From NCBI GenBank assembly GCA_965205565.1, contig CBDBID010000040.1:111451-175450 (forward strand): DNA of 64,000 nucleotides, in the 5' to 3' direction. The notes beneath the pieces were generated by a model that saw only the letters and a program-made list of their open reading frames with translations, did not search any database and was not told where the DNA came from. Positions 1,938-44,079 of this stretch are shown here, one piece after another. Numbering within the stretch: the stretch's first letter is position 1; each line of letters begins with the position of its first letter. Origin of the DNA: Acidobacteriota bacterium (lineage in GTDB: Bacteria; Acidobacteriota; UBA6911; RPQK01; CBDBID01). The position numbers and the translations under genes are program-made.

Positions 1938-3137
1938 TCAATCGCCGAGGGAAGGAGCCGATTGGATGATCTCCTCGCGACGCCAGGTCGTGAGCTGGTA
2001 CCGCAGCTGACCGGCGAACGGAAGGTCCGGCTCCAGCCGCAGGAGGTGTCGATATTCGGAAGCCGCCTGGGTAAAGTTGCCCTCCTGGGCGTGGATGGAG
2101 CCCATCAAAAAATGAATCAGTGGGTAACGCCTCGCCTCCCGGCTCTGACTGACCTTCAAAGCCGACTTTTTGGCGGCCCCCAACTTTCCCAGGTAGTAAT
2201 TGGCCACGCCGTGATAGTAGTAAGCTTCCATGGTTTCCGGGTCCAGCTCGAGGATTCGAAGCGTTAATTCATCGACCTCCTCCCAGCGGTTGTCCCGGAA
2301 GTCGAGAGCCGCCGTGGAAAGGCATGGAGGGATGTAAGCCGGATCTGAACTCAAAGCCTTGGAGAAAGCTTCTCGAGCACCCTCCTGGTCTTCTTTGGAA
2401 AGGCGGAGTTGTCCCAGCATCTGCCAGGCTGCGGCGAACTCGGGGTACACCCAGACCGCTTTCTCCAGTTCCTTTATTGCCCTGGGGTAACTGCTGGCCT
2501 TGTTCCGGGCCAACTCTTTTCGAGCCTTCCAGTAGGCCTTGCGCGCTTTCCTAGGTGCGGCCAGGGTGTTCAGGCTGACCATGGTGTCTTGTACATCGGT
2601 CCGACGCGTCAGCAGGATCGTGCCTACATTCGGCGAGTCCCAAGCGGATCGGCTCGCTAGTTGCAGAGTGTCGGACCGAAAACCTCCCAATAGAGCCCTG
2701 ATTTCACAGCCGCTCATATTGACTCGTGTGCCGCTGACCTCGAAGTCGCTCAGAGCGGTGATTCCGAACTGGCTGATGGCCGGCTTTCTGGCACTGGCGT
2801 CCATGACGGCCGATCTCTCGTTCCCCAGCTGAAAGCTGAATCCACCGTCCGCGGACGTATAGGTCTGGGAGCGGATCTCGAAGTTGCAGAGCAGCTCCAC
2901 CTTCACCGGTTCGGGCGGTGGATTGTCGTCTTCCAGTACCACCTTGCCCGACAGCAGCAGTAGCTTTGCAAAGGATTGCCGGTTGCGCCGCCACTCTTCT
3001 TGCTGGCGAGGGTCGGGCCTCGCCCCGGGTGTGGAAGGTTGACGCCGGGAGGGTGTTTGTGGTGCCTGGGCCAGGCCGGATTCGAGAACCAAGGGAAGCC
3101 ACAGAACCCAGAAAAGCCGAAGACCCTTGCTGACCAT
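1938..3137 (-). CDS. secreted TPR-repeat protein
   Basis: N-terminal signal peptide MVSKGLRLFWVLWLPLVLESGLAQA; TPR-like helical repeats toward the C-terminus (AYYYHGVANYYLGKLGAAKK...). Confidence 0.65.
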   Translation of the reverse strand: MVSKGLRLFWVLWLPLVLESGLAQAPQTPSRRQPSTPGARPDPRQQEEWRRNRQSFAKLLLLSGKVVLEDDNPPPEPVKVELLCNFEIRSQTYTSADGGFSFQLGNERSAVMDASARKPAISQFGITALSDFEVSGTRVNMSGCEIRALLGGFRSDTLQLASRSAWDSPNVGTILLTRRTDVQDTMVSLNTLAAPRKARKAYWKARKELARNKASSYPRAIKELEKAVWVYPEFAAAWQMLGQLRLSKEDQEGAREAFSKALSSDPAYIPPCLSTAALDFRDNRWEEVDELTLRILELDPETMEAYYYHGVANYYLGKLGAAKKSALKVSQSREARRYPLIHFLMGSIHAQEGNFTQAASEYRHLLRLEPDLPFAGQLRYQLTTWRREEIIQSAPSLGD

Positions 3138-3366
3138 ACTCGATTCCTACACCTGAGATGACTGTTGAGCCGGATCGTACAACAAAGGCAGCCTGGGGTC
3201 TATGCCTTCGTACCCCATTTCATAAATACGGTCACGTTTGTGGCGAGCGCGACGGTGTTGAGGGAGAGACAAAGCTATCGGCCCGGAGGTCGGCCGCCAG
3301 GATCCCTCAAGGCCAGGAGTGGGTTTGCCCGCCCTCTGGAACCGTGACGCAAACAAGTGGCATAGG

Positions 3367-4512: not shown

Positions 4513-5079
4513 ATGACCTGGATACGAACCGTTTCCTACGCTCAGGGGGGGGCTCGGCTCAAGAAGGCCATGGATCGGCTACGAGAACTCTACCCTCCAG
4601 AGTACGATCTGCCCGTTCAAGAGGCCGGGCAACGGCAGGAGAGCGTGGTGGCGGTACATAGCTTGATTCCTGATGCTCTCTATCATGCTCTGGCGACTCA
4701 CGGTGTCCTGCTGTCTCCCGAGCTGCCGCTGAGCCGGGCGCAACAGGAGATGATCTCCACGGTGGTCTCGGTTCAGAATCGGTGCTCCTTTTGAATCGAA
4801 TCTCACGCAGAGTTTCTGCGTCAAGTTAGCCTGGACGAACCACTGGTCAAAGCTCTGCAGGAAGATTACCGATCGGCGCCGATTTCCGATCGGGACCGGA
4901 TGATGCTGGATTACGTAGTCCAGCTGACCAAGGATGCCACCCGGATTTCGCGACAGGATCATCACAAATTGGGTCAGGCGGGCTTCGAGGAGCGAGCCAT
5001 CCTGCAGATGACCCTGATTGCCGCTTGGTTCAATTACATCAACCGAGTCGCCGATGCCCTGGGCGTCGGCCGGCCTTAG
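4513..5079 (+). CDS. AhpD/carboxymuconolactone-decarboxylase (CMD) family peroxidase-related protein; candidate selenoprotein with in-frame UGA at 4792-4794
   Basis: GGAGG RBS then ATG at 4513. The reading frame continues unbroken across TGA 4792-4794 to TAG 5077-5079. The motif NRCSF-[TGA]-IESHAEF puts the TGA at the second Cys of the family's CxxC...H redox motif. The C-terminal region ([18 protein letters not shown]) is typical CMD. Confidence 0.6.
4805..4821 (+). promoter_or_regulatory. SECIS-like hairpin (ACGCAGA-GUU-UCUGCGU) starting at the 11th nt after the UGA
   Basis: Perfect 7-bp stem with a 3-nt GUU loop, preceded by a 10-nt spacer after TGA 4792-4794; total 17 nt. Confidence 0.45.
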
Positions 5080-5153
5080 TGCTCCCTACCATAGATACGG
5101 GCATGTTTGCGGAGGGGGTTTGGGAGGTGAGGTCGAGGAGCGAGGAGGAGGCG

Positions 5154-5222
5154 ATGGCGGGGCACCGTAACCAGCCTTGCCCGTGCGGCAGTGGCAAAAA
5201 GTTCAAGAGGTGCTGCGGGTGA
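5154..5222 (+). CDS. micro-ORF encoding a 22-aa SEC-C metal-binding motif peptide (MAGHRNQPCPCGSGKKFKRCCG)
   Basis: GAGGAGG RBS directly upstream of the ATG; the peptide is essentially a complete SEC-C motif (CPCGSGKK[FY]KxCCG); its stop overlaps the queC GTG start (GTGA). Confidence 0.25.
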   Translation: MAGHRNQPCPCGSGKKFKRCCG

Positions 5223-5908
5223 AGCGGGACACGGTCTTGGCCTACAGCGGAGGCCTGGATTCGACGACCCTCTTATATCTGCTGCACTCCCAGGGATGTC
5301 GTCTCCGGGCCTTGGGCGTTCATTACGGGCAGCGGCACCAGAAAGAGTTACGGGCTGCCGAAAGTCTGTGCCGGGAGTTGCAGGTGGAATTTCGCCGGGT
5401 GGATCTGTCGTCGCTGAGCCCGTTGCTGGCTGGTAGTGCCTTGACGAGTGGGGAGGTCGAGGTGCCGGAGGGGCACTATACGGACGAAAGCATGGGGCAG
5501 ACGGTGGTCCCCAACCGCAACATGTTGTTGCTCTCCGTCGCCATCGCCTGGGCGGTCAGCGCCGGGTCCGGCAGCGTGGCCTACGCGGCCCATGCTGGAG
5601 ACCATGCCGTATACTCGGATTGCCGACCGGAGTTCGTGGAAGCCATGGACCAGGCGGCCGCGCTCTGCTCTTACGCGCCGGTCCGTATCTTGCGGCCCTT
5701 CATCCACAAGACCAAAGCCGAAATCGTGGGCCTGGGACATGAACTGGGCGTGCCCTTCGAGCGCACCTGGAGTTGTTACCAGGGGCGGGACCTGCACTGC
5801 GGGCGATGCGGAACCTGCTCGGAACGAGCGGAAGCGTTCCTTCTGGCCGGTGTCCCCGATCCGACAGTGTATCGGTCGTCTCCCCCGATCCTGGGGGAGC
5901 GCCCGTAA
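5219..5908 (+). CDS. queC: 7-cyano-7-deazaguanine synthase QueC
   Basis: GTG start giving VKRDTVLAYSGGLDS (PP-loop SGGxDS); C-terminal zinc-binding CxxC...CGRCGTC. Confidence 0.85.
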   Translation: MKRDTVLAYSGGLDSTTLLYLLHSQGCRLRALGVHYGQRHQKELRAAESLCRELQVEFRRVDLSSLSPLLAGSALTSGEVEVPEGHYTDESMGQTVVPNRNMLLLSVAIAWAVSAGSGSVAYAAHAGDHAVYSDCRPEFVEAMDQAAALCSYAPVRILRPFIHKTKAEIVGLGHELGVPFERTWSCYQGRDLHCGRCGTCSERAEAFLLAGVPDPTVYRSSPPILGERP

Positions 5909-7615: not shown

Positions 7616-9254
7616 CCGACATTCCTCATATCAACTTCGGATGTGAGTTCCTCTGACCTCTACATGATGAATGATCAAAACCTATCAGTCCCCCAACCTT
7701 GAATCAACCGTTCCTTCCCCATCCTTCGGCTGAAAAGGGCCTGTGATCACTGGTTTTCAAGATGCTTTTGGCAAAATCTGATAATCGGAGACACCTCTCC
7801 AGTTGCTCGATCAGAAACACTGAACGCTAAGCTGTACTCCATCTCAATCGGTCAATCCGAGACAATAGCTCGGCCCATATCTCCTGGCTTACCGCGACCT
7901 CCGCCATCTGAAATGTGACGATCCGGCTATGCCAAACTACCTTCGCTCCGATCTTGATCAGCTTAGTCAATAGGCTGCGAAGGGACCAGTGTTTGATGCT
8001 TCTAGGGAGGACCAGCCGCCGCAGGAAATTGCCCAGGTTATAGGCCAAAACGAACAGACCCAACCTCACCTGATTCGGGACAAAGCGCTGGCAGGACAGC
8101 CGTGTCCAGTTCAACGCATACTTGCCTTCCTTGATCCACTGCTCGACGGTGCCACGCCCATTGTAAAAGTGAACCACCCCTGGAGCTTGCGCGCTCATAT
8201 TGGTCACGATGAAACCGACTCTCGGAAAGAGTTCGCCGCGATGCCACTCGACCTTGGCAATCACCCGTCGAGGCCGGTCCCAACTGGCGGCTTGATAGCT
8301 GAAATCGGCAAACCAGACGACGGGTTTTCGGGGTGGACGACCCACTGGCCGGGTCAGCAGGTGTTCAATCTTTTCTTGAAGCACCTGGTTGGCGGGAAGC
8401 CGGATGGCATACAAAAAGCCTTTCTTCTCCAGGTATTGATAAATCTCCGGCTTGGCGAAGGCGGCATCCCCCCGAAAGTATTTGCGGACTTTCTTCTTCT
8501 CGTAGCGAGCCACGATTGGTTCCAGTAGCTCCTTCCAGCGATCCGCGCTGTGAACGTTGCCGGGGCGAAGCAAGGCACCTTCGCAATCTCCGAACTGGTT
8601 AAAACAAAACAGGGGATGGTAGCAGGTGCATCCAAAATGGCCGTTGTAGGCAGAGTCTTCTTGCTCGCCATGGACCGGGCTGGCTGAACTGTCCATATCC
8701 AGAATGATTCGTCGATGAGCGGTCTTCTCCAGTGCTCGTTCCACCCATTGGCCATTGACTTCCGAAAGGGCTTTGAGGTTGTCCTTAACAGACAGCATCT
8801 GGGTCTCAAATCGACCCATTGTGTTGGCACTGGCGGCATTCTTCTTGTCGATCTTCTTTCCAGTGATCCTCCGCATAGTCGGATCCACCGATAAACGATG
8901 ACCATCGTTGACATCTTCATAGCCAGCCAGGCGGCTGTATACTGATTGGCGCAGCAACGACGCGAGGTGGTGCTGGATGTTGCGCCCGGTCCGCGAATCG
9001 TCAAAAACTGAGGGTACACTATCGAATAAAGCCAACGCCTCGTCCAGGTCACGATAGGCGAGAAGTCCGGCATCCGATGTGACCTTTGCCCCATGAAATT
9101 CAAGCCTCAGACTGCCATCAATACCAAGCTTCATACCTTCACCCTTTGGGTTAGCCATTTCTTGCCCTCTTTCATAGATTATATCTGCTGTAATTATAAT
9201 GGGTTAGGGTGATATAGGGAGGCACGATGAGTGTCCCATATGGTGAATGGGGAT
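7616..9254 (-). mobile_element. IS1380-family insertion sequence, copy 1 (intact, ~1.64 kb)
   Basis: Terminal IRs GACATTCCTCATATCA (7616 end) and CCCATATGGTGAATGGGGA (9254 end); near-identical copies at 50945-52403 and a decayed one at 39395-40500. Confidence 0.8.
7827..9158 (-). CDS. IS1380-family DDE transposase (443 aa)
   Basis: Family-typical N-terminus ...KVTSDAGLLAYRDLDEALALFD and length; copy at 51040-52191 is identical apart from a C-terminal deletion and 2 aa substitutions. Confidence 0.8.
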   Translation of the reverse strand: MANPKGEGMKLGIDGSLRLEFHGAKVTSDAGLLAYRDLDEALALFDSVPSVFDDSRTGRNIQHHLASLLRQSVYSRLAGYEDVNDGHRLSVDPTMRRITGKKIDKKNAASANTMGRFETQMLSVKDNLKALSEVNGQWVERALEKTAHRRIILDMDSSASPVHGEQEDSAYNGHFGCTCYHPLFCFNQFGDCEGALLRPGNVHSADRWKELLEPIVARYEKKKVRKYFRGDAAFAKPEIYQYLEKKGFLYAIRLPANQVLQEKIEHLLTRPVGRPPRKPVVWFADFSYQAASWDRPRRVIAKVEWHRGELFPRVGFIVTNMSAQAPGVVHFYNGRGTVEQWIKEGKYALNWTRLSCQRFVPNQVRLGLFVLAYNLGNFLRRLVLPRSIKHWSLRSLLTKLIKIGAKVVWHSRIVTFQMAEVAVSQEIWAELLSRIDRLRWSTA

Positions 9255-10281: not shown

Positions 10282-11734
10282 CTAGCAGTCCGTGGTGGAA
10301 GTACGTTTTCTGAGCTCAGGTGGTACCCACCGGTGGAAGCAGCGAAGGGGTCGCTGAGGTGGGTTTTTCGGGCCAAGCAGCCGGAATCAGTCCGAACAGG
10401 CCCTTAAGACGCTTGAACAGCGACAAAATCAGTAGCATTAGGGCGCAAATCCGCCCCTGCAGACCCCGCGGCGTTCCCACACCCAGGCTCTGACGCATCA
10501 GCATCCCCAGATTGAAGGCGCTCACCTGGATCAGCAGTCGCTTCAACACATTCTCATGTCCCCGTACATGCAGCCGTCTCATCCCTCCGCTCCCGTACAG
10601 ATGCGCACAGGGTCGCTCCAGCTGCTCTCCTCGTTGCTGCAGCAGCCGCTGCCCTCGCTCTCCCCGGATGCGCCGCCGATTCGCATACACCGCTTCCTGC
10701 CCCTGCCGGTCTCCTCGCCAGCGTCGCTTCCCTCGCCTCGGTTCGCTCACATAGCTGCGCAGTCCCACCGCATCCAGGTCCACCATCCGCTGCGTGCTGT
10801 GATACCCCTTGTCGGCCACCACCTCTTCGATGCCTCGTCCCTCCGGCAGCGCTTGTTCCACCTTCTCGACCGCTTCCGTCAGGGTCTTCACCATGGTCTG
10901 CGTGTCCCCTTGATCGGCTCCCTGTACCGTCACCGAGACAATCGCTCCGGTCTCCAGATCCACTGCATGCTCCGCCTTGTGCGCCAGGTGCGTCCGCCCG
11001 TCCTTCATTCTGGTAATCCGCGCATCCGCATCATGCGGGTGCTTCCAAACCCGGTTCGATCCTTTGCCCGTGCGCTTGCGGTCCAGTTTGGCCAGATCTT
11101 CCCGTCGCGGCGTCTCAATCCCGGAGGCTTTCGCCAGCTCCATCAAAAACTCTTCATACCCCTGCTCGCTGTCCCGGCGCACGATGCTGCGCAGCGCTGC
11201 ATTCGCTTCCAGCGTAGTGGCATCGATGCCGATCGTCTTGCCCCGCAGCAGGCCGCTCGCCCCGATCCGCTTCAGTACCCAGTCAAAGACTGCTTCGTGG
11301 GTAGCCACATCGATCAGTCGCCGGGTTCGGGAGATCGTGGAGTGATCAGACGGCGACTCGCTCAGTTTCAATCCCAGAAACTCTCGCAGTGCCAGAGAAT
11401 CAGCTGCTCTCCAGGCTATTCCTCGTTCCGATCCGATCCCTTCGAAATACCCCACCAGCAGCAGCCGAAAGTACACTCCCGGAGCCAGGCTCGGTCGCCC
11501 CATCTTGTCTGCATAGAACTTCGCACACAGTCCCTCCACGAAGTCGTCAAAACCGTGTTCGTTGAAAAGGCCATTCAGTCTTTCGTAGAAGGGATGGCCG
11601 GCGGTGCGGGGCAGCTCACTGGTGGCGACCCACAGGTCTTCTTGCTGTCGACGTTTCTTTTTCCCCATTGCCATGGGGTCAGTCTAGTGTCGCTGTGTGA
11701 CCCCTTATCCTCGACTTTCACCACGGGCTGCTAG
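10282..11734 (-). mobile_element. IS5/IS1182-family insertion sequence, copy A (1453 bp)
   Basis: Imperfect 20-bp IRs CTAGCAGTCCGTGGTGGAAG / CTTTCACCACGGGCTGCTAG; second copy at 41235-42686 with >99% identity. Confidence 0.8.
10316..11674 (-). CDS. IS5/IS1182-family transposase (452 aa, DUF772 N-terminal domain + DDE)
   Basis: FYADKMGRPSLAPGVYFRLLLVGYFEGIGSERGIAWRAADSL is the InsH-N/DUF772 signature; ADKGYHS DDE region. Confidence 0.8.
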   Translation of the reverse strand: MAMGKKKRRQQEDLWVATSELPRTAGHPFYERLNGLFNEHGFDDFVEGLCAKFYADKMGRPSLAPGVYFRLLLVGYFEGIGSERGIAWRAADSLALREFLGLKLSESPSDHSTISRTRRLIDVATHEAVFDWVLKRIGASGLLRGKTIGIDATTLEANAALRSIVRRDSEQGYEEFLMELAKASGIETPRREDLAKLDRKRTGKGSNRVWKHPHDADARITRMKDGRTHLAHKAEHAVDLETGAIVSVTVQGADQGDTQTMVKTLTEAVEKVEQALPEGRGIEEVVADKGYHSTQRMVDLDAVGLRSYVSEPRRGKRRWRGDRQGQEAVYANRRRIRGERGQRLLQQRGEQLERPCAHLYGSGGMRRLHVRGHENVLKRLLIQVSAFNLGMLMRQSLGVGTPRGLQGRICALMLLILSLFKRLKGLFGLIPAAWPEKPTSATPSLLPPVGTT

Positions 11735-12114: not shown

Positions 12115-13062
12115 TCACATACTCCCCACTAAATCCTTATACCGCAAACGTTTCCCGTCCATGCCCTTCGCTACTGAGGCCATCTGGTCAATGGTATCCA
12201 AGGATCGGATGTTGTGCCGACCGGAGAACTCATTGACATACCGCTGCAGGTGCTTCTCGCTCATGCGGTGGTAGGTTCCGTAGTAGCCACGCTTCAGGAG
12301 CGCCCAGAAGCTCTCAATCCCGTTGGTGTGGGCCTGTCCCTTGACAAATTCACGGACGCTGTGACGGACGGAACTATGCTCGAAATCCAGCCAGAGCCGA
12401 TTGTAACCGCTGTGATCGTCCGTGTAGACCGTTGATCCTGGCTTGACTCGCTCCTGGATAAATCCTTCTAGTTCTTCCTGGGTGGTTCCCTGGATGACTG
12501 TGGCACTGACACGGTTGGTTTCACGATCCTTGACGCCAGCGACCGGAATCTTGCCCACGCCCCCACGACCAGCGTGAAGCCTCTTGCTAGGATGCTTGTT
12601 CTTCTCCTTGCCGCCGATGTACGTTTCGTCCACTTCGACCGGGCCGGAAAGGATCTTGTCGCCAAAGTCGAACCCTTCCCGTATGCGCTGCATCATGTGC
12701 CAGGCTGATTTCTGAGTGATGCCGAGTTCCCGGTGGACCTTCATGCTGGAGATGCCTTTGAGGTTGGTGGTCGCCATGTAAAGGACTATGGCCCAGTCCC
12801 GAATGCGGATGTTGCTGGAATGCATGGCCGTACCCTTGCGGACGCTGAAGTACTTCCGGCAATCCTTGCAGCGGTAGGGCATGGTTTTGTGATTGACTCG
12901 TGAGTACCTTTTGGACTCGCAATCAGGGCAGTGGATTCCGTTAGGCCATCTCTGCTCCTCAAACCACTTCTCAGCGGCTTCATCGGTTGGGAAAATGTCG
13001 AATAACTCTGTGATCGTCAGCCCTTTGCGGTCGGACCTTACGGGTGCTTTTGCCTTCTTCAT
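12115..13062 (-). CDS. IS1595-family (ISXO2-like) transposase
   Basis: N-terminal zinc ribbon CPDCES...CKDCRKYFS plus DDE region VEVDETYIGGKEKNKH; Met start at 13062 (MKKAKAP...), 316 aa. Confidence 0.75.
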   Translation of the reverse strand: MKKAKAPVRSDRKGLTITELFDIFPTDEAAEKWFEEQRWPNGIHCPDCESKRYSRVNHKTMPYRCKDCRKYFSVRKGTAMHSSNIRIRDWAIVLYMATTNLKGISSMKVHRELGITQKSAWHMMQRIREGFDFGDKILSGPVEVDETYIGGKEKNKHPSKRLHAGRGGVGKIPVAGVKDRETNRVSATVIQGTTQEELEGFIQERVKPGSTVYTDDHSGYNRLWLDFEHSSVRHSVREFVKGQAHTNGIESFWALLKRGYYGTYHRMSEKHLQRYVNEFSGRHNIRSLDTIDQMASVAKGMDGKRLRYKDLVGSM

Positions 13063-13250
13063 GGAAACTATAGTACCATGATAGTCTGACAGTTTTGGAA
13101 ACTTAGGTATATAATTCCCATTCTTTTTGTCATCGCATCTCCAGGCACTTCGCCAGGCCATGGACCCCTGGGTCAAACATGCCCGAACCCGGGAAGAAAG
13201 GACCGCCGAACTACAGAGACATTTGACGGTACTGCCCAAGGGTTCGGTGA

Positions 13251-14616
13251 AAAAGATCCAGGATGCCTGCCAGACCGGTACCTAGTACACATATTCATAT
13301 CCTGGCTCATGGCGTTCCTTTCAAAGAAGGCGATGAGACCAACTATGGACTGGCTCTGCACGACGATCACGAGCCCACCAAAGCCGACGTCGTCCCCGGA
13401 AATCGATTGGCGACACTGCTGAGACCTCAGATCGAACGACGGGGGGGAGAATTGGCCTGTCCGAGTGTCGTAACCATCGCCAGCTGAGACAGCGGAAACG
13501 TGGGTTCGGTGGTCGGCGCCGGCGCCAGCGTCGCTCATGCCCTACACGAGTCCGGCATCCCTTTGGTGGTGTCTTTCCAGTTTCCACTGTCCTGTTCCGG
13601 TTCGGTTGTTCTCACCCAGTCACTGTACGAAGGTCGTCTGGCGGGATCTGACCCACGCCGGCTGGTGGATAAGACCAGACGGCTTCTGAAGACCCAGGTT
13701 TCGAAAAGCCATGATTGGGCCGGTTTGGTCGCGTACGCGTCGTTGCCCACGGACATTGAGCAGAAGATCGCCGAGGCACGCATTCAAGCGGGCCCATGAC
13801 CGGATGGAAGCGGCCCTAAATCACGCCTACAGGCAGCTAAAGAGCATACCTCAAGATACCGTTAGGGAGTCACCTGCCGAGAATCTGAAGCTTTACCAGG
13901 GGTTACAAGACCGATTGACCGGGGCCCGCCAGCGTTTACTGGAGTTTCTGAACATCGAAACGGATGGTCGACGACGCTCTCAGATTGAACAGAAACTGGG
14001 CAGCACTCGGAAACGTCTGGCTGAAGTACTGTGGAGGACATCCGGGGTCAAGAGCGGGGATGTCTTCGGGGATGCTCTCACTCAAGCGCTCGACAACCTA
14101 GTTAAAGCCAAAAGACATTACGGGGAGGCTTTCCACGAGGACGAATCTCAGATTTGGATTCTGGTTCAGGCGCTTTCTCTGCGAACCGTTCGGGAAGGAG
14201 GCGGGATCGAAGAATTCGATTTGCAAAAATGGCGCATGGCAGAGGCGGTTTCCTTGCATCAGGCCGAGAGCGACGATACTACCACTAGGCGCTGGGCCTA
14301 CGGAAACCTCATCGAGCTGTACCTGATGGTCTCGTTCCATCCGTTGCTAGATGACTTGGATAGTCTGGGGTATGCCTCGATCCTCAATGTATTCTCGGAA
14401 GAACAGGCTCAAGTTCGGGCCAGGGGTTTTTTCGAGATGGCCGGCCAGGATGCCTTTGAAGTCATCGTGACGAAAATGCAGGTACGGCGCTACCTGGGCC
14501 TGTTTCCGTCTCTGGCGGACTTGTTGCCCCAAGGGGATCCCAATGCAGGACGATGGGAACATGTAAAAGCGTCGGCTGAAACGATTGTCCACCTGCTATC
14601 CGGTGAAAGTGAGTAA
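13251..14616 (+). pseudogene. CHAT (caspase-like) domain protein remnant, truncated at the 5' end by the IS1595 element
   Basis: IHILAHGVPF...ELACPSVV matches the CHAT His/Cys dyad context; an in-frame TGA at 13485-13487 and a frameshift near 13750 follow; the upstream frame is closed by stops at 13224 and 13248. Confidence 0.4.
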
Positions 14617-14928
14617 CCGGTTCGTCGTGCAACTCGTCCCAACTCCTTAATGGCTCGGGGTTTTGGGATCAAGCTGGACTACGGCCAGACCCACATGACG
14701 TCTATCTTACCCCTCTTCACCCTTACCTCTTAAGGTCCGGTTCTATCCGGTTCTGTCAATTCCACCTGTCTGAACGAGCCAGATCGCTCTCAAGCCAGAA
14801 GGGGTCTTGAAGAACCCCGGAATGAATCGTTGCGAGGAAGATGGATTTGTAGAAGAGGCAAGAAAAGTCTTAATGTGGGGGAAGAGAGAATCTCAACAGT
14901 CCTGGATCAGTGTTGATGGGAGGGTGGC

Positions 14929-15333
14929 ATGGCAACCATACGTGTGATGGAAGAGAGGGAGGCCGAGGGGCGGGTTCGGGAGATCTTCGAAGAGATCAAG
15001 AAAACCAAAGAGATTGATTTAGTGCCAGCCATCTGGCGGGCGCTGGCGAATCATCCCGGCCATCTGGAAGTGACCTGGAAGAAACTGAAGGGAATCATGC
15101 ACGAGTCCAGTCGACTGGACCTGAAGACCAAGGAGATGCTGGCCCTGGCGGTATCCATTACCAACGGTTGCACCTACTGAATCCATTCCCATACAGTCGC
15201 CGTGAAGCGGCTTGGATTGGATAATAAAGGGTTGGGCGAGCTGATCGCGGTGATCGACCTATTTAATGGTTTGAACCGAGTGGCCGATGGCTACCAGCTG
15301 GAGCCGGACGTGGTACCTGCTCTGGAAGATTGA
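14929..15333 (+). CDS. AhpD/CMD-family protein, paralogue 2; candidate selenoprotein with in-frame UGA at 15178-15180
   Basis: Frame continuous across the TGA to the TGA at 15331-15333; motif ITNGCTY-[TGA]-IHSH parallels NRCSF-[TGA]-IESH of the 4513 gene; C-terminus LGELIAVIDLFNGLNRVADGY is CMD-like. Confidence 0.5.
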
Positions 15334-15420
15334 GAAACTTCCTAAGGGCACCTTTCCAGCCAACCTGCTGGTGGCAAGACTGCCGGGAACGGAATCCGAA
15401 GGAGAACGACGATCGATAAG

Positions 15421-16383
15421 ATGCTTCCATTTTTTCCCCTTCTTCTTTTCACCCTGAACCTGGTGGCTGAGCAACAACCCATGTTTCGGGTGGAAACTCG
15501 GCTCATCCGGGTCCCGGTGACCATTCTGGACCCCACCGGACGGACTCTGAATTCTCTCACTCGGGAGCATTTCCAACTGCTGGACGAGGCGGAGTCTCGT
15601 CCGATCGAAAACTTCGTTCTGGACGCCACGCCGCTGCACATCGTCCTGTTGCTGGACTGCAGCGCCAGCGTCCAGTCAGAAATCGAAGAGATCAAGGACA
15701 CCGCCTATCAATTTTCTACCTCTTTCGGCAGGGAGGACCGATTCGCGCTCATCACCTTCTCAGATGAAGTGCGGGTCGTGCAGCGTTGGACCAATAGCCG
15801 GCGCCGGATCAGAAAGGCCCTGGGCAAACTCAAGGCGGGCTACAGGACTGCCCTATACGATGCCCTCTCGGGATCGGCGGTGGAACTTCTGCGAAGGGTG
15901 GCGGGCAAAAGGGTGATTATCGTCTTGACCGATGGGCTGGATAATGAAAGCCAGGCCAGTTATGAAAAGGTGATCGAGAATTTGATCCGCCAGAATATCT
16001 CTCTCTATATCGTCAGCCGGACGCGGCTGGTCGGTCCCGAGGTAGCCAAGAGCGACCGAGTGGAATTTCTCAACCAGGTGATGAAAAATGTGCTGGGAGA
16101 AGATGGAGATTTCGTCGATGCTTTTTTCAAGCAAAAGGAAGCGGCCCTGATTCAGCTGGCTCAAGCGACTGGGGGGCGCGCTTTTTTCCCGAAAAAGTTG
16201 GAGGAACTGGCAAGCAGCTACCGGCAGCTGGCGCATGAATTGAGGACCCAGTATCTATTAACCTTCCGGCCTCCGGCGGTCTCCAATAAAGCCTTTCGCT
16301 CCATCCGGGTCATCTGCACCGAACCGGTGAAGAAGGTGTACTACCGCGATCACTACTACTGGTCTCCTCCGCACTCCCAATAG
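15421..16383 (+). CDS. VWA-domain protein of the 'VWFA-related Acidobacterial domain' type
   Basis: Signal/TM N-terminus; vWA MIDAS-like region LLLDCSASV...ITFSDEV...LTDGLDNES; 320 aa. Confidence 0.75.
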   Translation: MLPFFPLLLFTLNLVAEQQPMFRVETRLIRVPVTILDPTGRTLNSLTREHFQLLDEAESRPIENFVLDATPLHIVLLLDCSASVQSEIEEIKDTAYQFSTSFGREDRFALITFSDEVRVVQRWTNSRRRIRKALGKLKAGYRTALYDALSGSAVELLRRVAGKRVIIVLTDGLDNESQASYEKVIENLIRQNISLYIVSRTRLVGPEVAKSDRVEFLNQVMKNVLGEDGDFVDAFFKQKEAALIQLAQATGGRAFFPKKLEELASSYRQLAHELRTQYLLTFRPPAVSNKAFRSIRVICTEPVKKVYYRDHYYWSPPHSQ

Positions 16384-16521: not shown

Positions 16522-18909
16522 ATGATTCTTGTGCGTCGCTTCCTGCTTTTCCATCCCAGTCTCGTTTTGGCCGTGATCCTGGTGGCAATCCGGGTCGGAT
16601 GCGGCCAGTCAGAGCCCCCGAAAATGGTGTTGGATCTGGATCGACCGGCAGAAGTGATCGGATGGGTGTGCAGTGGCATCGAGAAGCTGCCGGGACGAAT
16701 CGATCTCGACTTGAAACCAATTTCGGTGTCTCAAGCGGCGGTGAGTGTCCAGTATCCCTACCGAGTGCGACTCTCCATCTACTCCTCAGGGACGCCAGGT
16801 CGGGAATTTTTCGACCCGCCCTTGGAGTATGGAGAGGTGGTGCGTCTTCACACGTTCCTGCGGGAGCCGCCCTGTACGCCCTTCCCGGAACGCTCAACCA
16901 ACGTCAGCTCTGATTTCAAGAGGGAATCCTTCATACCATCCGCTTGAAGTCGCCTCTTCAGATCGAGCGCCTGGGACGCCATCAGGGAACCCCCCTCCTG
17001 AGGCCCATCTTTCAGCACACAGGACAGTCCGAAGAGTTTTGTGAGAAGGCAGTTAGTCCGGATAGATTGAAGTTAATTCTAAGTGTCTTTCTGGGTCGCA
17101 AGAAGGTACTGGAAGAGTCGGACCGGCCGTTGATTAAGCGTCTGGGCATCTTTCACCTTTTTGTGGTATTGGGCTTTCACGTTACCGTCCTGCGTTCTCT
17201 TTTTCATCTGATGTTTCGTCCTCTGGGCCCATGGCGATTGTGGTTGTCCTTGGCAGGAATGTGGATGTACGTGTGCGTGACCGGTGCCGGGGTCTCAACG
17301 GTTCGGGCCGGAATCATGGTCACGGTGTGTACTATCTGCTGGGCCTGGGTGGCTTACGCTATCGGTTCCTGAACATCGTGGGGCTTTCGGCCTGCGTTGT
17401 TCTCCTCTTGTGGCCGAACAGCGTCTTCCATCCTGGTTTCCAGTTCTCTTATCTATCGGTCGGCGCCCTGGGCACCATCGCTTTTCCGAGGCTGCGGTCG
17501 TTCCGAGCGATGATCCACGGATTCACCGCGGCCTTTGCAGACCGGATCTTGGTAGGCCGAACTGGGGAAAATAAAAAACGGCGCAAGGCTCGATAATGGT
17601 TGGAGGAGGTGGCGGAGTTCTGGCCTGTGTCTTTTCGGCGAGGGTTTCCCGTTGTCGCTGCAGTGTTCTACCGGGTCTGGAGCCTGGTGATTTGTACCCT
17701 TTCGATTCAATTCATGACACTCCCTTTGAGTCTCTATTACTCCAACGCGTGGGGCTTTTCTCTGATTGTTTCGAACCTGTTCCTGATTCCCTTTTTTCTG
17801 CTTTTTGTCTTCAGCTGTGCGCTGCTTTTTGGGGTGTTCTGGTTGCCGGGAGGACAGTGGCTGGCGGCCCTGATCGATGCCTTCGGGTTGGGGCTGTCAG
17901 CTGCTAGTCGGCTGCTGGACAGCTGGGGAGGCCCGTCATATTTTCCACAGCCCGAGGCGTGGCAGCTGATCCTGTTCTATTTCCTGCTGGTGGCAATCTA
18001 TTTTCTGCAAAGACGGTGGTTGCGCTGGCTGGCTGTTGCTGCCCCCGCCCTTCTTCTGATGTCCGTCCCGGTCAAGATCCACCCAGCGGGCCGGCTCACG
18101 ATCACCATGTTGGATGTGGGGCAAGGCGAATCTATTCACGTGCGCTATCCGGATGGAAGCGATGCTCTGGTCGATATTGGTGGCCGGCCGCCCCTAGGCG
18201 ACCATTCGAGAGACTTCGTGGGAGAGCGGGTACGAAGGCTGCGCTACGTCCTTTTGACCCATCCGCACGCCGACCACGTGCAGGGTTACGAATTCGTACG
18301 AGGGCGTTTCCGATCGGCCAGCTGTTCTTCCATGAGTACTCTGCTCAGTACGAACCGTCTGCCAGCATGGATTGTTTGCGAGCGGGTGATGGCTTCGTGA
18401 TTGCCGGCGTGGAGCATTCCGTGCTGCATCCGGCGATGACATGTACAGTCCAACCCAGGTCCGATACCAATAATGCCGCGCTGGTGTTCTTGCTGCGGTA
18501 TGGGGGATTCTCGATGCTCTTCACGGGTGACTTGGAGGTCGAGGGCGAGAGAGCACTACTCTCGCGGCTGAAACCGGTTACGGTGTTGAAGTCGCCTCAT
18601 CATGGAAGCAAGTCCAGCAATACAGGAGATCTTCTACGTCGCAGCCACCCGGAAGCGATTCTGATATCGGCGGGCCGGGACAATGTTTTCGATCACCCCT
18701 CTCGTGCCACTCGCTTGCGGTTTCGCCAGCTCCGCATTCCCTTTTTCGTCACCTCGGCATGGGGATCGCTTCGGGTGGAAACCGATGGCGAGCGCTGGCG
18801 GCTTCTTCGCTACAGCCGCGCGGCGGACCGTTTTCTGGAGATTCCGTTGAAAGACGGAGTTTTATGTCAAACGCTTAGCTCCAGCAGGCTAAAGTCGGGC
18901 AGATCATAG
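16522..18909 (+). pseudogene. comEC: ComEC/Rec2 competence channel protein, split over >=4 frames
   Basis: Membrane competence domain (LGIFHLFVVLGFHV...) and metallo-beta-lactamase domain (ITMLDVGQGESIHV...LLTHPHADHVQG ... SPHHGSKSS) are found in the consecutive overlapping ORFs 16522-16947, 16944-17372, 17231-17596, 17600-18400 and 17959-18909; the frameshifts could be sequencing errors. Confidence 0.55.
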
Positions 18910-25451: not shown

Positions 25452-26885
25452 ATGGCCCCTGTGGCGAACCCCACCCAGGCGTTACGCTCTCTCCCCTCCG
25501 TAGACGAGGTCCTGCGGCGCAGTGCCGTCAAGAAACTGCTGCAATCCCACGCCCGAGATCTGGTGGTTCGCATCGTCCAGGAGCGCCTGGAAGAGCTGCG
25601 CACGCTGGTTTTGAGCCAGCATCTGGACGAGGCCGCGCTGGAGTCGCGTCTGGCGAATCTGGACGGGTGCATCAGTGCTTGCTTGAGAAAATATCTTATC
25701 CCGTCGTTGCACAAGGTGGTCAATGCCACAGGTGTGATCGTTCATACCAACTTGGGCCGGGCCCCCATGGCGGCTCCCGCGGCGGCCAGGTTGGAGGAGA
25801 TCGCCAGATCCTACTCGACGCTGGAGTACGATCTGGAGAAGGGTGATCGAGGGCATCGGGACCGTTATTTCGAGCAGCGAATGATGCAAGTTCTGGGATG
25901 TGAGGCCGCCACCGTCTGCAACAACAATGCCGCCGCGGTTTTCCTGCTCGTCAACACCCTGGCCGCCGGCAAAAAGGTGCTGGTGAGTCGAGGTGAGCTG
26001 ATCGAAATCGGAGGGTCTTTCCGCATTCCCGACATCCTTCGAAGTAGTGGTGCTGTCCTGAAAGAAGTGGGGACCACCAACAAGACCAGGACCTCGGATT
26101 ACCGGAACGCCATCGACGAGGACACGGCTCTCATCTTACGGGTTCATCCGAGCAATTACCGAGTCGTAGGATTTACGGCGAGGCCCCGTTTGAAGGAATT
26201 GAGCGAGCTGGCGCGGGAACGGAACCTGTATCTCATCAAGGATGCGGGAAGTGGTTACCTTTTCCCGATTTCCCACTCAGTCTTGGGTCGCGAACCAACC
26301 ATCCAGTCGGTCCTGCAAACGGGGGTTGATGCCGTGTGTTTCAGCGGCGACAAATTACTGGGGGGGCCACAGTCCGGCGTGGTGGTAGGAAAAAGGGATT
26401 TGATTGATCGCCTCCGCGACAACCCTCTGATGAGAGTTTTCCGTGTGGACAAGATGACTTACGCTGCGCTGGACTCGACGCTGCTGGAATATCTCAAGGG
26501 AACGGCGGCGCAAACAATCCCCGTCCTGCGCATGCTATCGCTTTCGGTCGAAGAGCTGGAGCATCGAGCCAGGGGGATACAAGAACAGCTCGATTCGCGC
26601 GTTTTTGAAACTTGTCTGCGAGCGGGGGCCTCGGTAGTGGGCGGTGGAGCCGCCCCGGAAGAATCGATCGACACCAGGCTACTGGCTATCCGCTGGCCAG
26701 CCCATTCAGCCCACGACTTGGAGCAAGCGCTGCGCCACCAGGATCCTCCGATCCTGGCACGTATCGGAAAAGATCAATTGCTGCTGGACTTGCGAACCGT
26801 CTTGCCGGAAGAAGACCCAATCGTGGTAAAGGCCTTCTCGAGACTGGCCAATAGGCGTGAGGATCCCGTTCACACAAGCGGTTGA
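25452..26885 (+). CDS. selA: L-seryl-tRNA(Sec) selenium transferase (selenocysteine synthase) SelA
   Basis: LPSVDEVL N-terminus, VVNATGVIVHTNLGRA, CNNNAAAVFL...SRGELIEIGGSFRIP, PLP-lysine region FSGDKLLGGPQSG; 477 aa. Confidence 0.85.
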   Translation: MAPVANPTQALRSLPSVDEVLRRSAVKKLLQSHARDLVVRIVQERLEELRTLVLSQHLDEAALESRLANLDGCISACLRKYLIPSLHKVVNATGVIVHTNLGRAPMAAPAAARLEEIARSYSTLEYDLEKGDRGHRDRYFEQRMMQVLGCEAATVCNNNAAAVFLLVNTLAAGKKVLVSRGELIEIGGSFRIPDILRSSGAVLKEVGTTNKTRTSDYRNAIDEDTALILRVHPSNYRVVGFTARPRLKELSELARERNLYLIKDAGSGYLFPISHSVLGREPTIQSVLQTGVDAVCFSGDKLLGGPQSGVVVGKRDLIDRLRDNPLMRVFRVDKMTYAALDSTLLEYLKGTAAQTIPVLRMLSLSVEELEHRARGIQEQLDSRVFETCLRAGASVVGGGAAPEESIDTRLLAIRWPAHSAHDLEQALRHQDPPILARIGKDQLLLDLRTVLPEEDPIVVKAFSRLANRREDPVHTSG

Positions 26886-26944
26886 GATTTTTGCCGTGTC
26901 GGGCTATTGCCGCTGTGGGGGTGATCCGCTCATGAATGAGTTTT

Positions 26945-28298
26945 TCAGAGTTGGCGAAGGGCCAGGTTGGCGGCGATCTGCAGGGGATCCCACAGTGTGC
27001 CGTAGGGTGGTGCGTAGGCAAGGTCCAGCTGAGAAAGCTCCCAAACCGTCATTCTGGCCGTCAGGGCGGCAACCAGGGTGTCGATCCGCTTGGCTACGGA
27101 ATCGTTTCCGGCGATCTGACCGCCCAGAATACGCCCGTCTCCTCGATCGAAGATCAATTTGACGTGCATGGGACCGGCGTCCGGATAATAGCGGGCCCGG
27201 TTGCGATCGGTCACGTAAACAGAGCTGGCTGCGAAACCGGCTTTGTAGGCCTGACGCAGGGTCAGACCGGTGCGGGCGACAGCGAGTTGGAAAACCTTTT
27301 CCAAGGAGGTCTCCAGGCTCCCCGCGAAAGATGCTGGTTTGACCGGCCAGATTTTCCCCCACGACGCGCCCCTGCTTGGCGGCTGTGGTACCCAGAGATG
27401 AGAAGATCGGCTGTCCGGACACCTGGGAGACGGTCTGTGCGCAATTGCCGGCCGCATACACACCTCCGGTTCGAGTTTGCCCGCGTTCGTCAACCCAGAT
27501 AGCTCCGCTCATCCCGCAAGGGATTCCAGACCGCTCCGCCAGTGCGGTGTTGGGATCTATCCCGACGTCGATCACCGCGAGGCCCACGGGGCGGACTTCG
27601 GGGCCCACCTCTACAGCCTGGACCGCTCCGTTCAGACCAGCCAGTTTCCTGACTCGTGTTTCCAGGACTAGGTCGATCTGGTTTCGTCTCAGCTCCTCCT
27701 GGATAAGCTCGGCGATCTCCTCGTCCACCTGGTTAAAGACGTGCGGATTGCGCTCGACCAGGAGCACCTCCAAGCCCAGAGTGCGCAGGGCGTGGGCCAT
27801 CATGAGGCCAATGTAGCCCCCACCCACGATCACCGCGCGACGCAGCTTGTTTCGCTTGATGGCATTCCGGATGCGGATACCGTCTTCCAAACGGCTGACG
27901 GTAAACACGTTCTGCAAGCGGAGACCGTCGATGTCGGGTACTCTGGGGACGTAACCGGTGGCGATGACGATTTTCCGGTAAGGGATCTCGAATGACTTTT
28001 CCGAGCGCAGGTCGGTGCAGGCAACCAGGCTGCGGCCCGTGTAAATCTCATCCACGCGGACGTTGGTGCGGGATAGGATGCCGCGCTCGGTCCGGAGACG
28101 CTCCGGTGAAAAGGAGATGAGTCGTTCGTGTTCCCCGACCATCCCGGAAACGTAGTAGGGCAGACCACAGATGCTGTAGGAGATAAAGGGGCTGGCTTCC
28201 AGGAGGGTTATCTCCAGATTGGGATCAAGGCGCTTGGCACGGCTGGCCGCGGTCATCCCGGCTGCATTTCCGCCGATCACCACGATACTTTCGCCCAT
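26945..28298 (-). CDS. FAD-dependent pyridine nucleotide-disulfide oxidoreductase (NADH oxidase / CoA-disulfide reductase family) with an apparent 1-nt frameshift near 27342
   Basis: N-terminus MGESIVVIGGNAAGMTAA...SICGLPYY (redox Cys); the C-terminal dimerisation domain (YYPDAGPMHVKL...GRILGGQIAG) is in the +1 frame (ORF 26945-27493); the switch lies between ENLAG and KPASFAGSL. Confidence 0.6.
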
Positions 28299-41234: not shown

Positions 41235-42686
41235 TAGCAGTCCGTGGTGGAAGTACGTTTTCTGAGCTCAGGTGGTACCCACCGGTGGAAGCAGCGAAGG
41301 GGTCGCTGAGGTGGGTTTTTCGGGCCAAGCAGCCGGAATCAGTCCGAACAGGACCTTAAGACGCTTGAACAGCGACAAAATCAGTAGCATTAGGGCGCAA
41401 ATCCGCCCCTGCAGACCCCGCGGCGTTCCCACACCCAGGCTCTGACGCATCAGCATCCCCAGATTGAAGGCGCTCACCTGGATCAGCAGTCGCTTCAACA
41501 CATTCTCATGTCCCCGTACATGCAGCCGTCTCATCCCTCCGCTCCCGTACAGATGCGCACAGGGTCGCTCCAGCTGCTCTCCTCGTTGCTGCAGCAGCCG
41601 CTGCCCTCGCTCTCCCCGGATGCGCCGCCGATTCGCATACACCGCTTCCTGCCCCTGCCGGTCTCCTCGCCAGCGTCGCTTCCCTCGCCTCGGTTCGCTC
41701 ACATAGCTGCGCAGTCCCACCGCATCCAGGTCCACCATCCGCTGCGTGCTGTGATACCCCTTGTCGGCCACCACCTCTTCGATGCCTCGTCCCTCCGGCA
41801 GCGCTTGTTCCACCTTCTCGACCGCTTCCGTCAGGGTCTTCACCATGGTCTGCGTGTCCCCTTGATCGGCTCCCTGTACCGTCACCGAGACAATCGCTCC
41901 GGTCTCCAGATCCACTGCATGCTCCGCCTTGTGCGCCAGGTGCGTCCGCCCGTCCTTCATTCTGGTAATCCGCGCATCCGCATCATGCGGGTGCTTCCAA
42001 ACCCGGTTCGATCCTTTGCCCGTGCGCTTGCGGTCCAGTTTGGCCAGATCTTCCCGTCGCGGCGTCTCAATCCCGGAGGCTTTCGCCAGCTCCATCAAAA
42101 ACTCTTCATACCCCTGCTCGCTGTCCCCGCGCACGATGCTGCGCAGCGCTGCATTCGCTTCCAGCGTAGTGGCATCGATGCCGATCGTCTTGCCCCGCAG
42201 CAGGCCGCTCGCCCCGATCCGCTTCAGTACCCAGTCAAAGACTGCTTCGTGGGTAGCCACATCGATCAGTCGTCGGGTTCGGGAGATCGTGGAGTGATCA
42301 GACGGCGACTCGCTCACTTTCAATCCCAGAAACTCTCGCAGTCCCAGAGAATCAGCTGCTCTCCAGGCAATTCCTCGTTCCGATCCGATCCCTTCGAAAT
42401 ACCCCACCAGCAGCAGCCGAAAGTACACTCCCGGAGCCAGGCTCGGTCGCCCCATCTTGTCTGCATAGAACTTCGCACACAGTCCCTCCACGAAGTCGTC
42501 AAAGCCGTGTTCGTTGAAAAGGCCATTCAGTCTTTCGTAGAAGGGATGGCCGGCGGTGTGGGGCAGCTCACTGGTGGCGACCCACAGGTCTTCTTGCTGT
42601 CGACGTTTCTTTTTCCCCATTGCCATGGGGTCAGTCTAGTGTCGCTGTGTGACCCCTTATCCTCGACTTTCACCACGGGCTGCTAG
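41235..42686 (-). mobile_element. IS5/IS1182-family insertion sequence, copy B (1452 bp)
   Basis: Same IRs as copy A; 4 aa differences in the transposase; same orientation as copy A (direct repeats ~29.5 kb apart). Confidence 0.8.
41268..42626 (-). CDS. IS5/IS1182-family transposase (452 aa)
   Basis: Near-identical to 10316-11674. Confidence 0.8.
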   Translation of the reverse strand: MAMGKKKRRQQEDLWVATSELPHTAGHPFYERLNGLFNEHGFDDFVEGLCAKFYADKMGRPSLAPGVYFRLLLVGYFEGIGSERGIAWRAADSLGLREFLGLKVSESPSDHSTISRTRRLIDVATHEAVFDWVLKRIGASGLLRGKTIGIDATTLEANAALRSIVRGDSEQGYEEFLMELAKASGIETPRREDLAKLDRKRTGKGSNRVWKHPHDADARITRMKDGRTHLAHKAEHAVDLETGAIVSVTVQGADQGDTQTMVKTLTEAVEKVEQALPEGRGIEEVVADKGYHSTQRMVDLDAVGLRSYVSEPRRGKRRWRGDRQGQEAVYANRRRIRGERGQRLLQQRGEQLERPCAHLYGSGGMRRLHVRGHENVLKRLLIQVSAFNLGMLMRQSLGVGTPRGLQGRICALMLLILSLFKRLKVLFGLIPAAWPEKPTSATPSLLPPVGTT

Positions 42687-43125: not shown

Positions 43126-44079
43126 ATGAGGTATCCAAAGTCATTAGTTGAGGCTGTCCGGTTCTTTTCAGACTTTGAGCGTTGCCGCCAATACATGGTG
43201 AAACTTCGCTGGCCCGACGGCAAGGTGACTTGCCCACGGTGCGGCGGGGATCGAGTCAAGTGGCTGGCAAAGGCTCGGGTATGGAAGTGCTACGCAAAGC
43301 ACAAGCAGCCCACCTTCACGCTCAAGACGGGAACGATCTTCGAGGAATCTCCTATCGGTCTGGACAAGTGGACTACGGCAATCTGGCTGGTCGCAAATTG
43401 CAAAAACGGGATTTCTTCTCTTGAGATGGCCCGCCATCTGGGAGTGACCCAGAAGACGGCATGGTTCATGAATCACCGCATCCGCAAGGCCATGCAGGAC
43501 GGGTCGTTCGTCAAGCTGGGCGGAGAGATCGAAGTCGATGAGACATTCATCGGTGGAAAGGCTCGCAATATGCACGTCTCCGCAAGGAAGCGCCGGATCA
43601 CTGGCACTGGCGGGAAGGACAAAACCGCCGTGCTGGGAATGCTGGAACGAAACGGAAGGGTCCGAACTTCCGTGATAGAGGATCGTAAGAGGCGGACCAT
43701 CCATCCCCAGGTCCGTGACCAGGTGGAGGCCGGTTCCGCACTCTATTCCGATGAGTTACTTTCATACGAAGGGCTGGCATCCGATTACGCCCACCAGGTC
43801 ATCAATCACGCAGTCGAATACGTCAGGGGTGAGGTTCATACCAATGGCATGGAGAACTACTGGTCGCTGCTCAAGCGCGGCCTCAATGGAACCTATGTCT
43901 CGGTCGAGCCGTTTCACCTGTTCCGTTACCTAGCAGAGCAAGCCTTCCGGTTCAACAACCGCGAGGCTGAGGGTGGAGACTTCGAGCGTTTCTCGATTGC
44001 GATGGCACAGGCAGTTGGTCGCAGGCTTACTTATGACGAACTGTCGGGGAGGGCACCTAGTCAAGCGACGGTTAACTAA
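43126..44079 (+). CDS. IS1595-family transposase (317 aa)
   Basis: Zinc ribbon CPRCGGDRVKWLAKARVWKC and DDE region EVDETFIGGKARNMH; diverged from the 12115-13062 copy. Confidence 0.75.
   Translation: MRYPKSLVEAVRFFSDFERCRQYMVKLRWPDGKVTCPRCGGDRVKWLAKARVWKCYAKHKQPTFTLKTGTIFEESPIGLDKWTTAIWLVANCKNGISSLEMARHLGVTQKTAWFMNHRIRKAMQDGSFVKLGGEIEVDETFIGGKARNMHVSARKRRITGTGGKDKTAVLGMLERNGRVRTSVIEDRKRRTIHPQVRDQVEAGSALYSDELLSYEGLASDYAHQVINHAVEYVRGEVHTNGMENYWSLLKRGLNGTYVSVEPFHLFRYLAEQAFRFNNREAEGGDFERFSIAMAQAVGRRLTYDELSGRAPSQATVN

Follow-up and report, generated by a model that had tools for sequence, protein, structure and literature searches.

In the window, that is the whole stretch of 64,000 nucleotides analysed here, the gene at 14929-15333 on the forward strand is in all likelihood a functional selenocysteine (Sec)-encoding gene of the AhpD/CMD family, with a probability of roughly 0.92. 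Translation confirmed the frame read in the preliminary description, which stays open from ATG 14929 across TGA 15178-15180 to TGA 15331-15333 and comprises 134 codons. The lone internal stop of this frame is the TGA at codon 84, preceded by ...LALAVSITNGCTY and followed by IHSHTVAVKRLGL..., so that the motif in translation reads ...SITNGCTY before the stop and IHSH... after it. The features of the gene are the following.

14929-15333, forward strand: predicted AhpD-core/CMD-family selenoprotein coding sequence, complete, 134 residues, stop TGA 15331-15333.
14919-14923, forward strand: GGAGG, putative Shine-Dalgarno-like sequence read from the sequence, 5 nt before ATG 14929.
15133-15135, forward strand: codon GAG of E69, which completes the AhpD-type relay in the phmmer alignment with M. 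tuberculosis AhpD.
15169-15192, forward strand: redox motif C81-T-Y-U84-I-H-S-H88, from TGC 15169-15171 to CAT 15190-15192.
15178-15180, forward strand: in-frame UGA, predicted Sec at residue 84, based on the exchange of TGA and Cys codons among related loci.

The mechanical list of open reading frames shows this gene as two separate frames, 14929-15180 (83 aa) and 15202-15333 (43 aa), and public gene callers give the 83-residue fragment only. The public calls also contain a 56-residue ORF at 15287-15457 (forward strand), in another frame and overlapping the true 3' end of the gene, which looks like an artefact of ending the gene at the UGA. No promoter or terminator was found when 14600-15500 was scanned.

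Family searches of the 14929 protein were done with Cys put in for the internal stop. Pfam CMD (PF02627) matched residues 53-120 (E = 5e-15, 55.7 bits for a cut-off of 23), a match that runs across the UGA and bears out the CMD-like C-terminal half noted earlier, and NCBIfam TIGR00778 (ahpD_dom) was passed with 47.7 bits for a cut-off of 27.8. The best solved relative is PDB 2OUW (E = 7e-24, residues 1-127). It is also the best PDB match of the AlphaFold model of P0001, the closest Cys homologue (68% identical), with a TM score of 0.91 and an rmsd of 1.2 A, values which apply to this homologue and not to the 14929 protein itself; the model (pLDDT 96.6) is all-helical with six helices and places the CxxC at a helix N-terminus. 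Together, the Pfam, NCBIfam, 2OUW and homologue model matches uphold the AhpD/CMD-family membership proposed in the preliminary description. On the other hand, the protein fell below the cut-offs of the NCBIfam '(seleno)protein' models NF041238 (31.8 vs 175) and NF041047 (22 vs 110), as well as NF053654 (16.2 vs 310), which is likewise a '(seleno)protein' model, and below that of TIGR01926 (60.6 vs 81.8). Judged by sequence, the gene is thus placed in a subfamily, 2OUW-like, different from that of the NCBIfam selenoprotein models and TIGR01926.

The AhpD proton relay consists of five residues, E118, C130, H132, C133 and H137 (PMC3141380). In the phmmer alignment, residues 69-116 of the 14929 protein were matched with residues 118-165 of M. 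tuberculosis AhpD (MtAhpD), pairing E69 with E118, C81 with C130, Y83 with H132, U84 with C133 and H88 with H137. The E-x11-C-x-x-C-x-x-x-H relay is therefore present in the 14929 protein, with U84 replacing Cys, and K68, E69, C81 and Y83 are invariant in the homologue alignment. The attacking nucleophile of MtAhpD is C133, as Koshkin et al. reportedly found in 2003, and Sec at the equivalent position is therefore chemically sensible.

Among the homologues recovered by protein search, the full-length ones have 131-134 aa, are 60-68% identical and carry ...NGCxYCINSH..., while in about 50 others, of 82-83 residues, the match takes in exactly 62% of the query and the sequence stops after ...NGCxY. 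The Sec column is occupied by an invariant Cys in 38 full-length homologues. At the DNA level, 80 related loci were obtained by a scan that used a single genome for each species, and in these the codon aligned with TGA 15178-15180 is TGA in 32 and TGC or TGT in 48. According to their MAG labels, the TGA loci belong to Acidobacteriota (L001, 80% identical), Desulfobacterales and other 'delta proteobacteria', and Bacillota/Syntrophomonadaceae, and further ones to Gemmataceae and other Planctomycetota, Methylomirabilota and Binatia, one of them being the Olavius Delta 1 symbiont. The conservation of the UGA in related genomes, which the preliminary description had proposed to check, thus extends over several phyla.

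The structure downstream of the UGA was examined by folding and by comparison of the UGA and Cys forms, with the following elements in the window.

15195-15212, forward strand: predicted bacterial SECIS core hairpin, stem 15196-15200 with 15207-15211 plus the pair A15195-U15212.
15181-15222, forward strand: lower helices of the minimum-energy fold, AUCCA 15181-15185 with UGGAU 15218-15222 and UCC 15187-15189 with GGA 15214-15216.

The minimum-energy fold of 15175-15225 (-16.3 kcal/mol, z = -2.6 relative to shuffles) consists of a 6-bp apical stem, 15195-15200 with 15207-15212, and the two lower helices. The core stem GUCGC/GCGGC, with one U-G pair, starts 15 nt after the UGA and closes a 6-nt loop, CGUGAA, at 15201-15206. 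Conservation among the 33 UGA forms is confined to the 5-bp core, at positions 19-23 and 30-34 counted from the U of the UGA; their consensus is GCCGC-CGUG(A/C)A-GCGGC, and the consensus fold finds this stem alone. The core is fully paired in all 33 UGA forms and in none of the 48 Cys forms (Fisher p = 2e-23, uncorrected for phylogeny). Accordingly, the RNA structure anticipated downstream of the UGA in the preliminary description is present, conserved and strictly tied to the UGA forms.

The same linkage is seen at the level of codons. Third-codon positions 21, 24, 27, 30 and 33 have an entropy of 0-0.2 bit in UGA forms as against 1.2-1.7 bit in Cys forms, while the flanking third positions 18, 36 and 39 are as variable in the former as in the latter. 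In UGA forms an Arg codon, CGG, makes the 3' arm of the core, where most Cys forms have Lys (AAG or AAA). Local folding is also more stable in UGA forms, averaging -9.8 kcal/mol as against -4.5 kcal/mol in Cys forms. On a rough neighbour-joining tree, UGA and Cys forms are interleaved, and the linkage between hairpin and UGA would therefore reflect several switches and not one inherited event. No compensatory (double) base changes were found in the core stem of the 33 UGA forms, which varies only by three one-sided substitutions, U15197 of the window among them, each preserving a G-U pair. Therefore, the structure is backed by sequence conservation and by its linkage to the UGA, not by covariation.

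Rfam gave no SECIS or meaningful RNA family, either in the whole window at the gathering threshold or in 15100-15300 under permissive settings. The published bacterial SECIS consensus describes a loop of 3-9 nt, an upper stem of 4-16 bp, 16-37 nt from UGA to loop, a G at loop position 1 or 2 with G or U after it, and an energy of at most -7.5 kcal/mol (PMC13188914). The hairpin at 15195-15212 has a loop of 6 nt starting C-G-U, a stem of 6 bp, a spacing of 20 nt and an energy of -7.6 kcal/mol for the core or -15.3 kcal/mol when extended. Hence it lies within the published constraints, and its earlier qualification as less canonical is not warranted.

Some Cys forms carry hairpins of their own in this region. 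L011 has a shifted-register hairpin (3244-3293), L045 (3247-3296) keeps 4 of the 5 pairs, and L008, L013 and L015 have a different G+C stem at the SECIS position. In all, 4 of the 5 core pairs are kept in two Cys forms, and the Cys forms that keep a hairpin are placed beside or within Sec clades on the tree. The hairpins left in some Cys forms may be relics of a recent replacement of Sec by Cys.

As regards the stem register, the repeated GCC GCC permits three registers, which are not fully separated by the data. The stem initially drawn, GCCG/CGGC with a UGAAG loop, has an energy of -5.9 kcal/mol, compared with -7.6 (window) and -9.5 kcal/mol (consensus) for the preferred register. It does not account for the invariance of position 21, and L019 breaks it while leaving the preferred register intact. 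Given its weaker energy and the break in L019, the initial stem is probably off by three bases.

The enclosing helix of AAUCCA and UGGAUU described together with that stem does form in the window fold, where it corresponds to 15181-15185 paired with 15218-15222, but it is not conserved in relatives. Across the family, pairing is kept in only 73% of the cells of the lower helices, with several columns unpaired in the majority of sequences; in a covariation test, the full three-helix structure performed no better than shuffles and showed no compensatory pairs. Consequently, the outer helices were rejected as a family feature, only the 5-bp core being conserved. The outer helix is lineage-specific, and the lower helices at 15181-15222 are probably not required for function.

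A second gene of the window has the same arrangement.

4513-5079, forward strand: predicted TIGR01926-type AhpD-like selenoprotein, with UGA 4792-4794.
4805-4821, forward strand: hairpin ACGCAGA-GUU-UCUGCGU, after UGA 4792-4794.

The 4513-5079 product passes NCBIfam TIGR01926, 'peroxidase-related enzyme', with 111.3 bits for a cut-off of 81.8, and its motif reads ...NRCSF before the stop and IESH... after it. BLASTP aligned it with the 14929 protein at 30% identity over 70 residues and put both UGAs in one column, as expected from the preliminary description, in which the two paralogues had the UGA at the same position of the CxxU motif. In the database, the nearest homologues of the 4513 gene (P0121-P0128) show W at the Sec column and more distant ones have Cys there. 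The DNA of L083 (346-918) has TGA at the W column; therefore, the W in the database is an artefact of the gene caller, and the UGA is conserved in L083 and L084. In entries of this kind, a selenoprotein is disguised as a seemingly complete protein with Trp. L083 and L084 likewise have exactly the hairpin sequence of 4805-4821, whereas beyond it, further 3', the sequences diverge. With the UGA and the hairpin of the first paralogue conserved in these relatives, the argument that two paralogues with the same internal stop speak against chance nonsense mutations holds. In a scan of the whole window for CxxU and UxxC motifs, which is noisy in G+C-rich DNA, only 4792 and 15178 stood out. A short ORF at 5025-5222 (forward strand), just upstream of and overlapping a 243-residue ORF at 5177-5908, ends in CPCGSGKKFKRCCG, an ending that we take to resemble the SEC-C metal-binding motif.

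Of the components needed for Sec incorporation, one is encoded in the window.

25452-26885, forward strand: selA, L-seryl-tRNA(Sec) selenium transferase (Pfam SelA, E = 1.9e-137; Se-cys_synth_N).

Located 10 kb downstream from the 14929 gene, selA has named homologues that are all SelA of Acidobacteriota, so that an uncultured acidobacterium is the probable source of the window. A pyridine-nucleotide-disulphide oxidoreductase at 26904-28298 (reverse strand) adjoins selA. Contigs of 711,427 and 73,671 bases are recorded both for P0058 and P0059, which are 83-residue relatives of the 14929 protein, and for the close SelA relatives P0243 and P0244; the truncated AhpD-like gene and selA are thus probably on one contig in these relatives, the match being one of contig size. 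No selB, selD or tRNA-Sec was found within the 64-kb window, in which ARAGORN finds one tRNA-Ala only, and they are assumed to be encoded elsewhere in the genome.

That the window shows no selB, selD or tRNA-Sec would also fit a UGA that is decoded otherwise, either under a reassigned code (Trp or Gly) or by SECIS-independent read-through inserting Trp or Cys, and the W stored at the Sec column of some first-paralogue homologues points in the same direction. However, the latter entries are a caller artefact, the underlying DNA having TGA. Moreover, TGA is the stop of 9 of the 18 Pfam-supported genes of the window, including the 14929 gene and selA, and is the commonest ordinary stop; the genetic code is therefore standard. 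Outside the TGA forms the column is always Cys, which is the signature of Sec/Cys exchange, and a dedicated hairpin and selA are present. Another decoding of this UGA is consequently very unlikely.

Even less probable is that the gene is a pseudogene, in which a nonsense mutation in a Cys-type AhpD-like gene would leave an 83-residue fragment or no product at all. In its favour are the public annotation of the 83-residue fragment alone, the IS-rich surroundings and the fragmented look of a nearby ComEC-like gene. Yet the same TGA is present in 32 other genomes of several phyla, and the frame after it is open in all 32 loci, over 49-50 codons in 29 of them and over 56, 56 and 75 codons in L072, L077 and L049 respectively, lengths that are within the range of the Cys forms. 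In comparison with L001, the 48 codons after the UGA comprise 17 identical, 23 synonymous and 8 non-synonymous ones, a large synonymous excess by which the frame 3' of the TGA is judged to be under purifying selection. In addition, the hairpin is conserved at synonymous sites in TGA forms only, and a change from TGC or TGT to TGA at one catalytic codon in two paralogues is unlike decay. The preliminary description held that the UGA at the catalytic CxxC position is not a chance nonsense mutation, a view sustained by the 32 TGA loci, the 48 Cys loci and the intact downstream frames; it would have read the absence of a conserved RNA structure, together with decay in relatives, as the mark of a decaying copy, and what was found instead is a hairpin that is kept and frames that are intact. 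The synteny comparison with L001, an Acidobacteriota MAG and the closest named relative, found the gene common to both but not its flanks.

Lastly, a false TGA introduced into a Cys codon by sequencing or assembly error can practically be set aside, since, even though the related contigs are low-coverage long-read metagenome assemblies (2x, 6x), at least five contigs, derived from four samples, carry an identical 83-residue product (the index lists seven such contigs), the independent assemblies L081 and L082 keep the TGA at 99.0-99.5% identity to the window, and relatives at 73-87% identity stop there too. The database entry in question, of 83 residues and identical to the window product, has been recorded on several metagenome contigs, the largest of 4.57 Mb. 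The conserved TGA, the open frame, the synonymous excess and the repeated assemblies therefore exclude, for practical purposes, both a pseudogene and a sequencing error, and leave a functional Sec-encoding gene as the preferred reading.

With respect to genomic context, the 14929 gene is bordered by genes for an IS1595 transposase and a VWA-domain protein, by an unassigned ORF of 301 residues and by a ComEC-like region in fragments. When the ORFs lying up to 3 kb to either side of the gene in 81 loci were compared all against all by BLAST, no conserved neighbours emerged beyond lineage-level synteny, and the larger neighbour clusters were rejected as partner families, being shadow ORFs that overlap the 14929-type gene itself. 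The window is unusually rich in IS elements (7827-9158, 10316-11674, 12115-13239, 41268-42626, 43126-44079 and 51040-52191, and also 1938-3137 and 45151-46350), which include two IS1595-type and two DDE_Tnp_1_4 transposases and two pairs of ORFs of the same length (452 aa and 399 aa). L081 and L082 differ from the window in IS content just upstream of the 14929 gene. The ComEC-like region at 16522-18909 (forward strand) has DUF4131, Competence and Lactamase_B pieces spread over at least four ORFs, also in related contigs, and one strain variant has an IS inserted in it; this region may be a decaying gene or the result of frameshifts in long-read assemblies.

In the decoding proposed for the 14929 gene, UGA 15178-15180 would be read as Sec, residue 84, and not as a stop, the hairpin at 15195-15212 acting as a SECIS that would bring SelB-GTP and Sec-tRNA(Sec) to the ribosome, while SelA, encoded at a distance of 10 kb, would supply the Sec-tRNA. 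In the resulting protein, C81-x-x-U84 would serve as the redox centre, placed at a helix N-terminus, and would be arranged with the flanking E69, Y83 and H88 in a manner that matches the proton relay of MtAhpD. The protein would most likely be a selenol/thiol oxidoreductase which, through a catalytic cycle via a C81-U84 selenenylsulfide, might reduce an oxidised partner of the peroxiredoxin type or hydroperoxides directly. A role in peroxide defence is likely for such an enzyme, the substrate and the redox partner suggested here being putative.

At least 32 orthologues of the 14929 gene, and the gene itself, are stored publicly as 82-83-residue fragments, and the true 3' end of the truncated orthologues is sometimes overlaid by a spurious small ORF. 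Because of this truncated annotation, counts of redox selenoproteins are too low in Acidobacteriota, Planctomycetota, Desulfobacterota and other phyla. The Sec/Cys alignment is moreover a natural experiment in which the hairpin and the Arg CGG come and go with the UGA, and it could be used in order to train or benchmark SECIS predictors. Knowledge of Sec decoding and of AhpD-like proteins is left unchanged by this gene.

Regarding known systems, 2OUW, the 'alkylhydroperoxidase AhpD core' of Rhodospirillum rubrum, belongs to the same length class as the 14929 protein and has the same E...CxxCxxxH, but it has Cys-Ser-Tyr-Cys and no Sec, and it is a structural-genomics entry without a published function. 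MtAhpD (PDB 1KNC / 1GU9) shares the catalytic hairpin with the 14929 protein, the alignment being of about 48 residues (E = 0.004). It differs in having 177 residues and a duplicated helical core, compared with 134 residues here, and its partners, AhpC and the lipoamide-bearing DlaT/Lpd, are not among the genes encoded beside the 14929 gene.

The SECIS of the E. coli fdhF type is likewise a hairpin within the coding sequence, directly 3' of the UGA and with a small apical loop containing G-U. In the fdhF SECIS the spacer is about 11 nt, whereas that of the 14929 hairpin is 15 nt, with no bulged U evident and a stem of only 5-6 bp.

Selenoproteins of the AhpD/CMD superfamily with a CxxU motif have been described from several sources. 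The Sargasso Sea data gave 27 'AhpD-like' and 4 'CMD domain-containing' CxxU sequences (Zhang, Fomenko and Gladyshev 2005, PMC1088965), GOS gave 'AhpD-like 1' and 'AhpD-like 2' (PMC2398784), others were reported from Olavius symbionts (PMC1976440), and a 2026 review tabulates them, the TIGR01926 family being its 'AhpD-like protein, CxxU' (PMC13188914). In the accessible part of these sources, the Sargasso 'AhpD-like' sequences (PMC1088965) are of the longer TIGR01926 type, like the first paralogue and unlike the 14929 protein, while the 'CMD domain-containing' sequence ..NQCAYuTSHN.. (192 aa) and the GOS 'AhpD-like 2' sequence ..NECFYUTSAH.. differ in length and sequence from the 2OUW-like group of 131-134 residues. 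Among the published Sargasso (PMC1088965) and GOS (PMC2398784) selenoprotein sequences compared, as far as these sources were available, the 2OUW-like subfamily is absent. The published sequences being of other subfamilies and no NCBIfam selenoprotein model being matched, it is therefore possible, though on balance doubtful, that the 131-134-residue 2OUW-like group is a Sec-using subfamily not yet catalogued, present in at least six phyla. Its UGA forms have the SECIS core GCCGCCGUG(A/C)AGCGGC almost base for base across phyla, and this core is lost in the Cys forms. In other respects, the 14929 gene agrees with the published CxxU AhpD/CMD selenoproteins, which like it have the PF02627 domain, Sec in place of the second Cys, Sec/Cys pairs and a SECIS after the UGA. 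It is an ordinary selenoprotein gene of the sort described from 2005 to 2008, its mechanism and gene type being well known.
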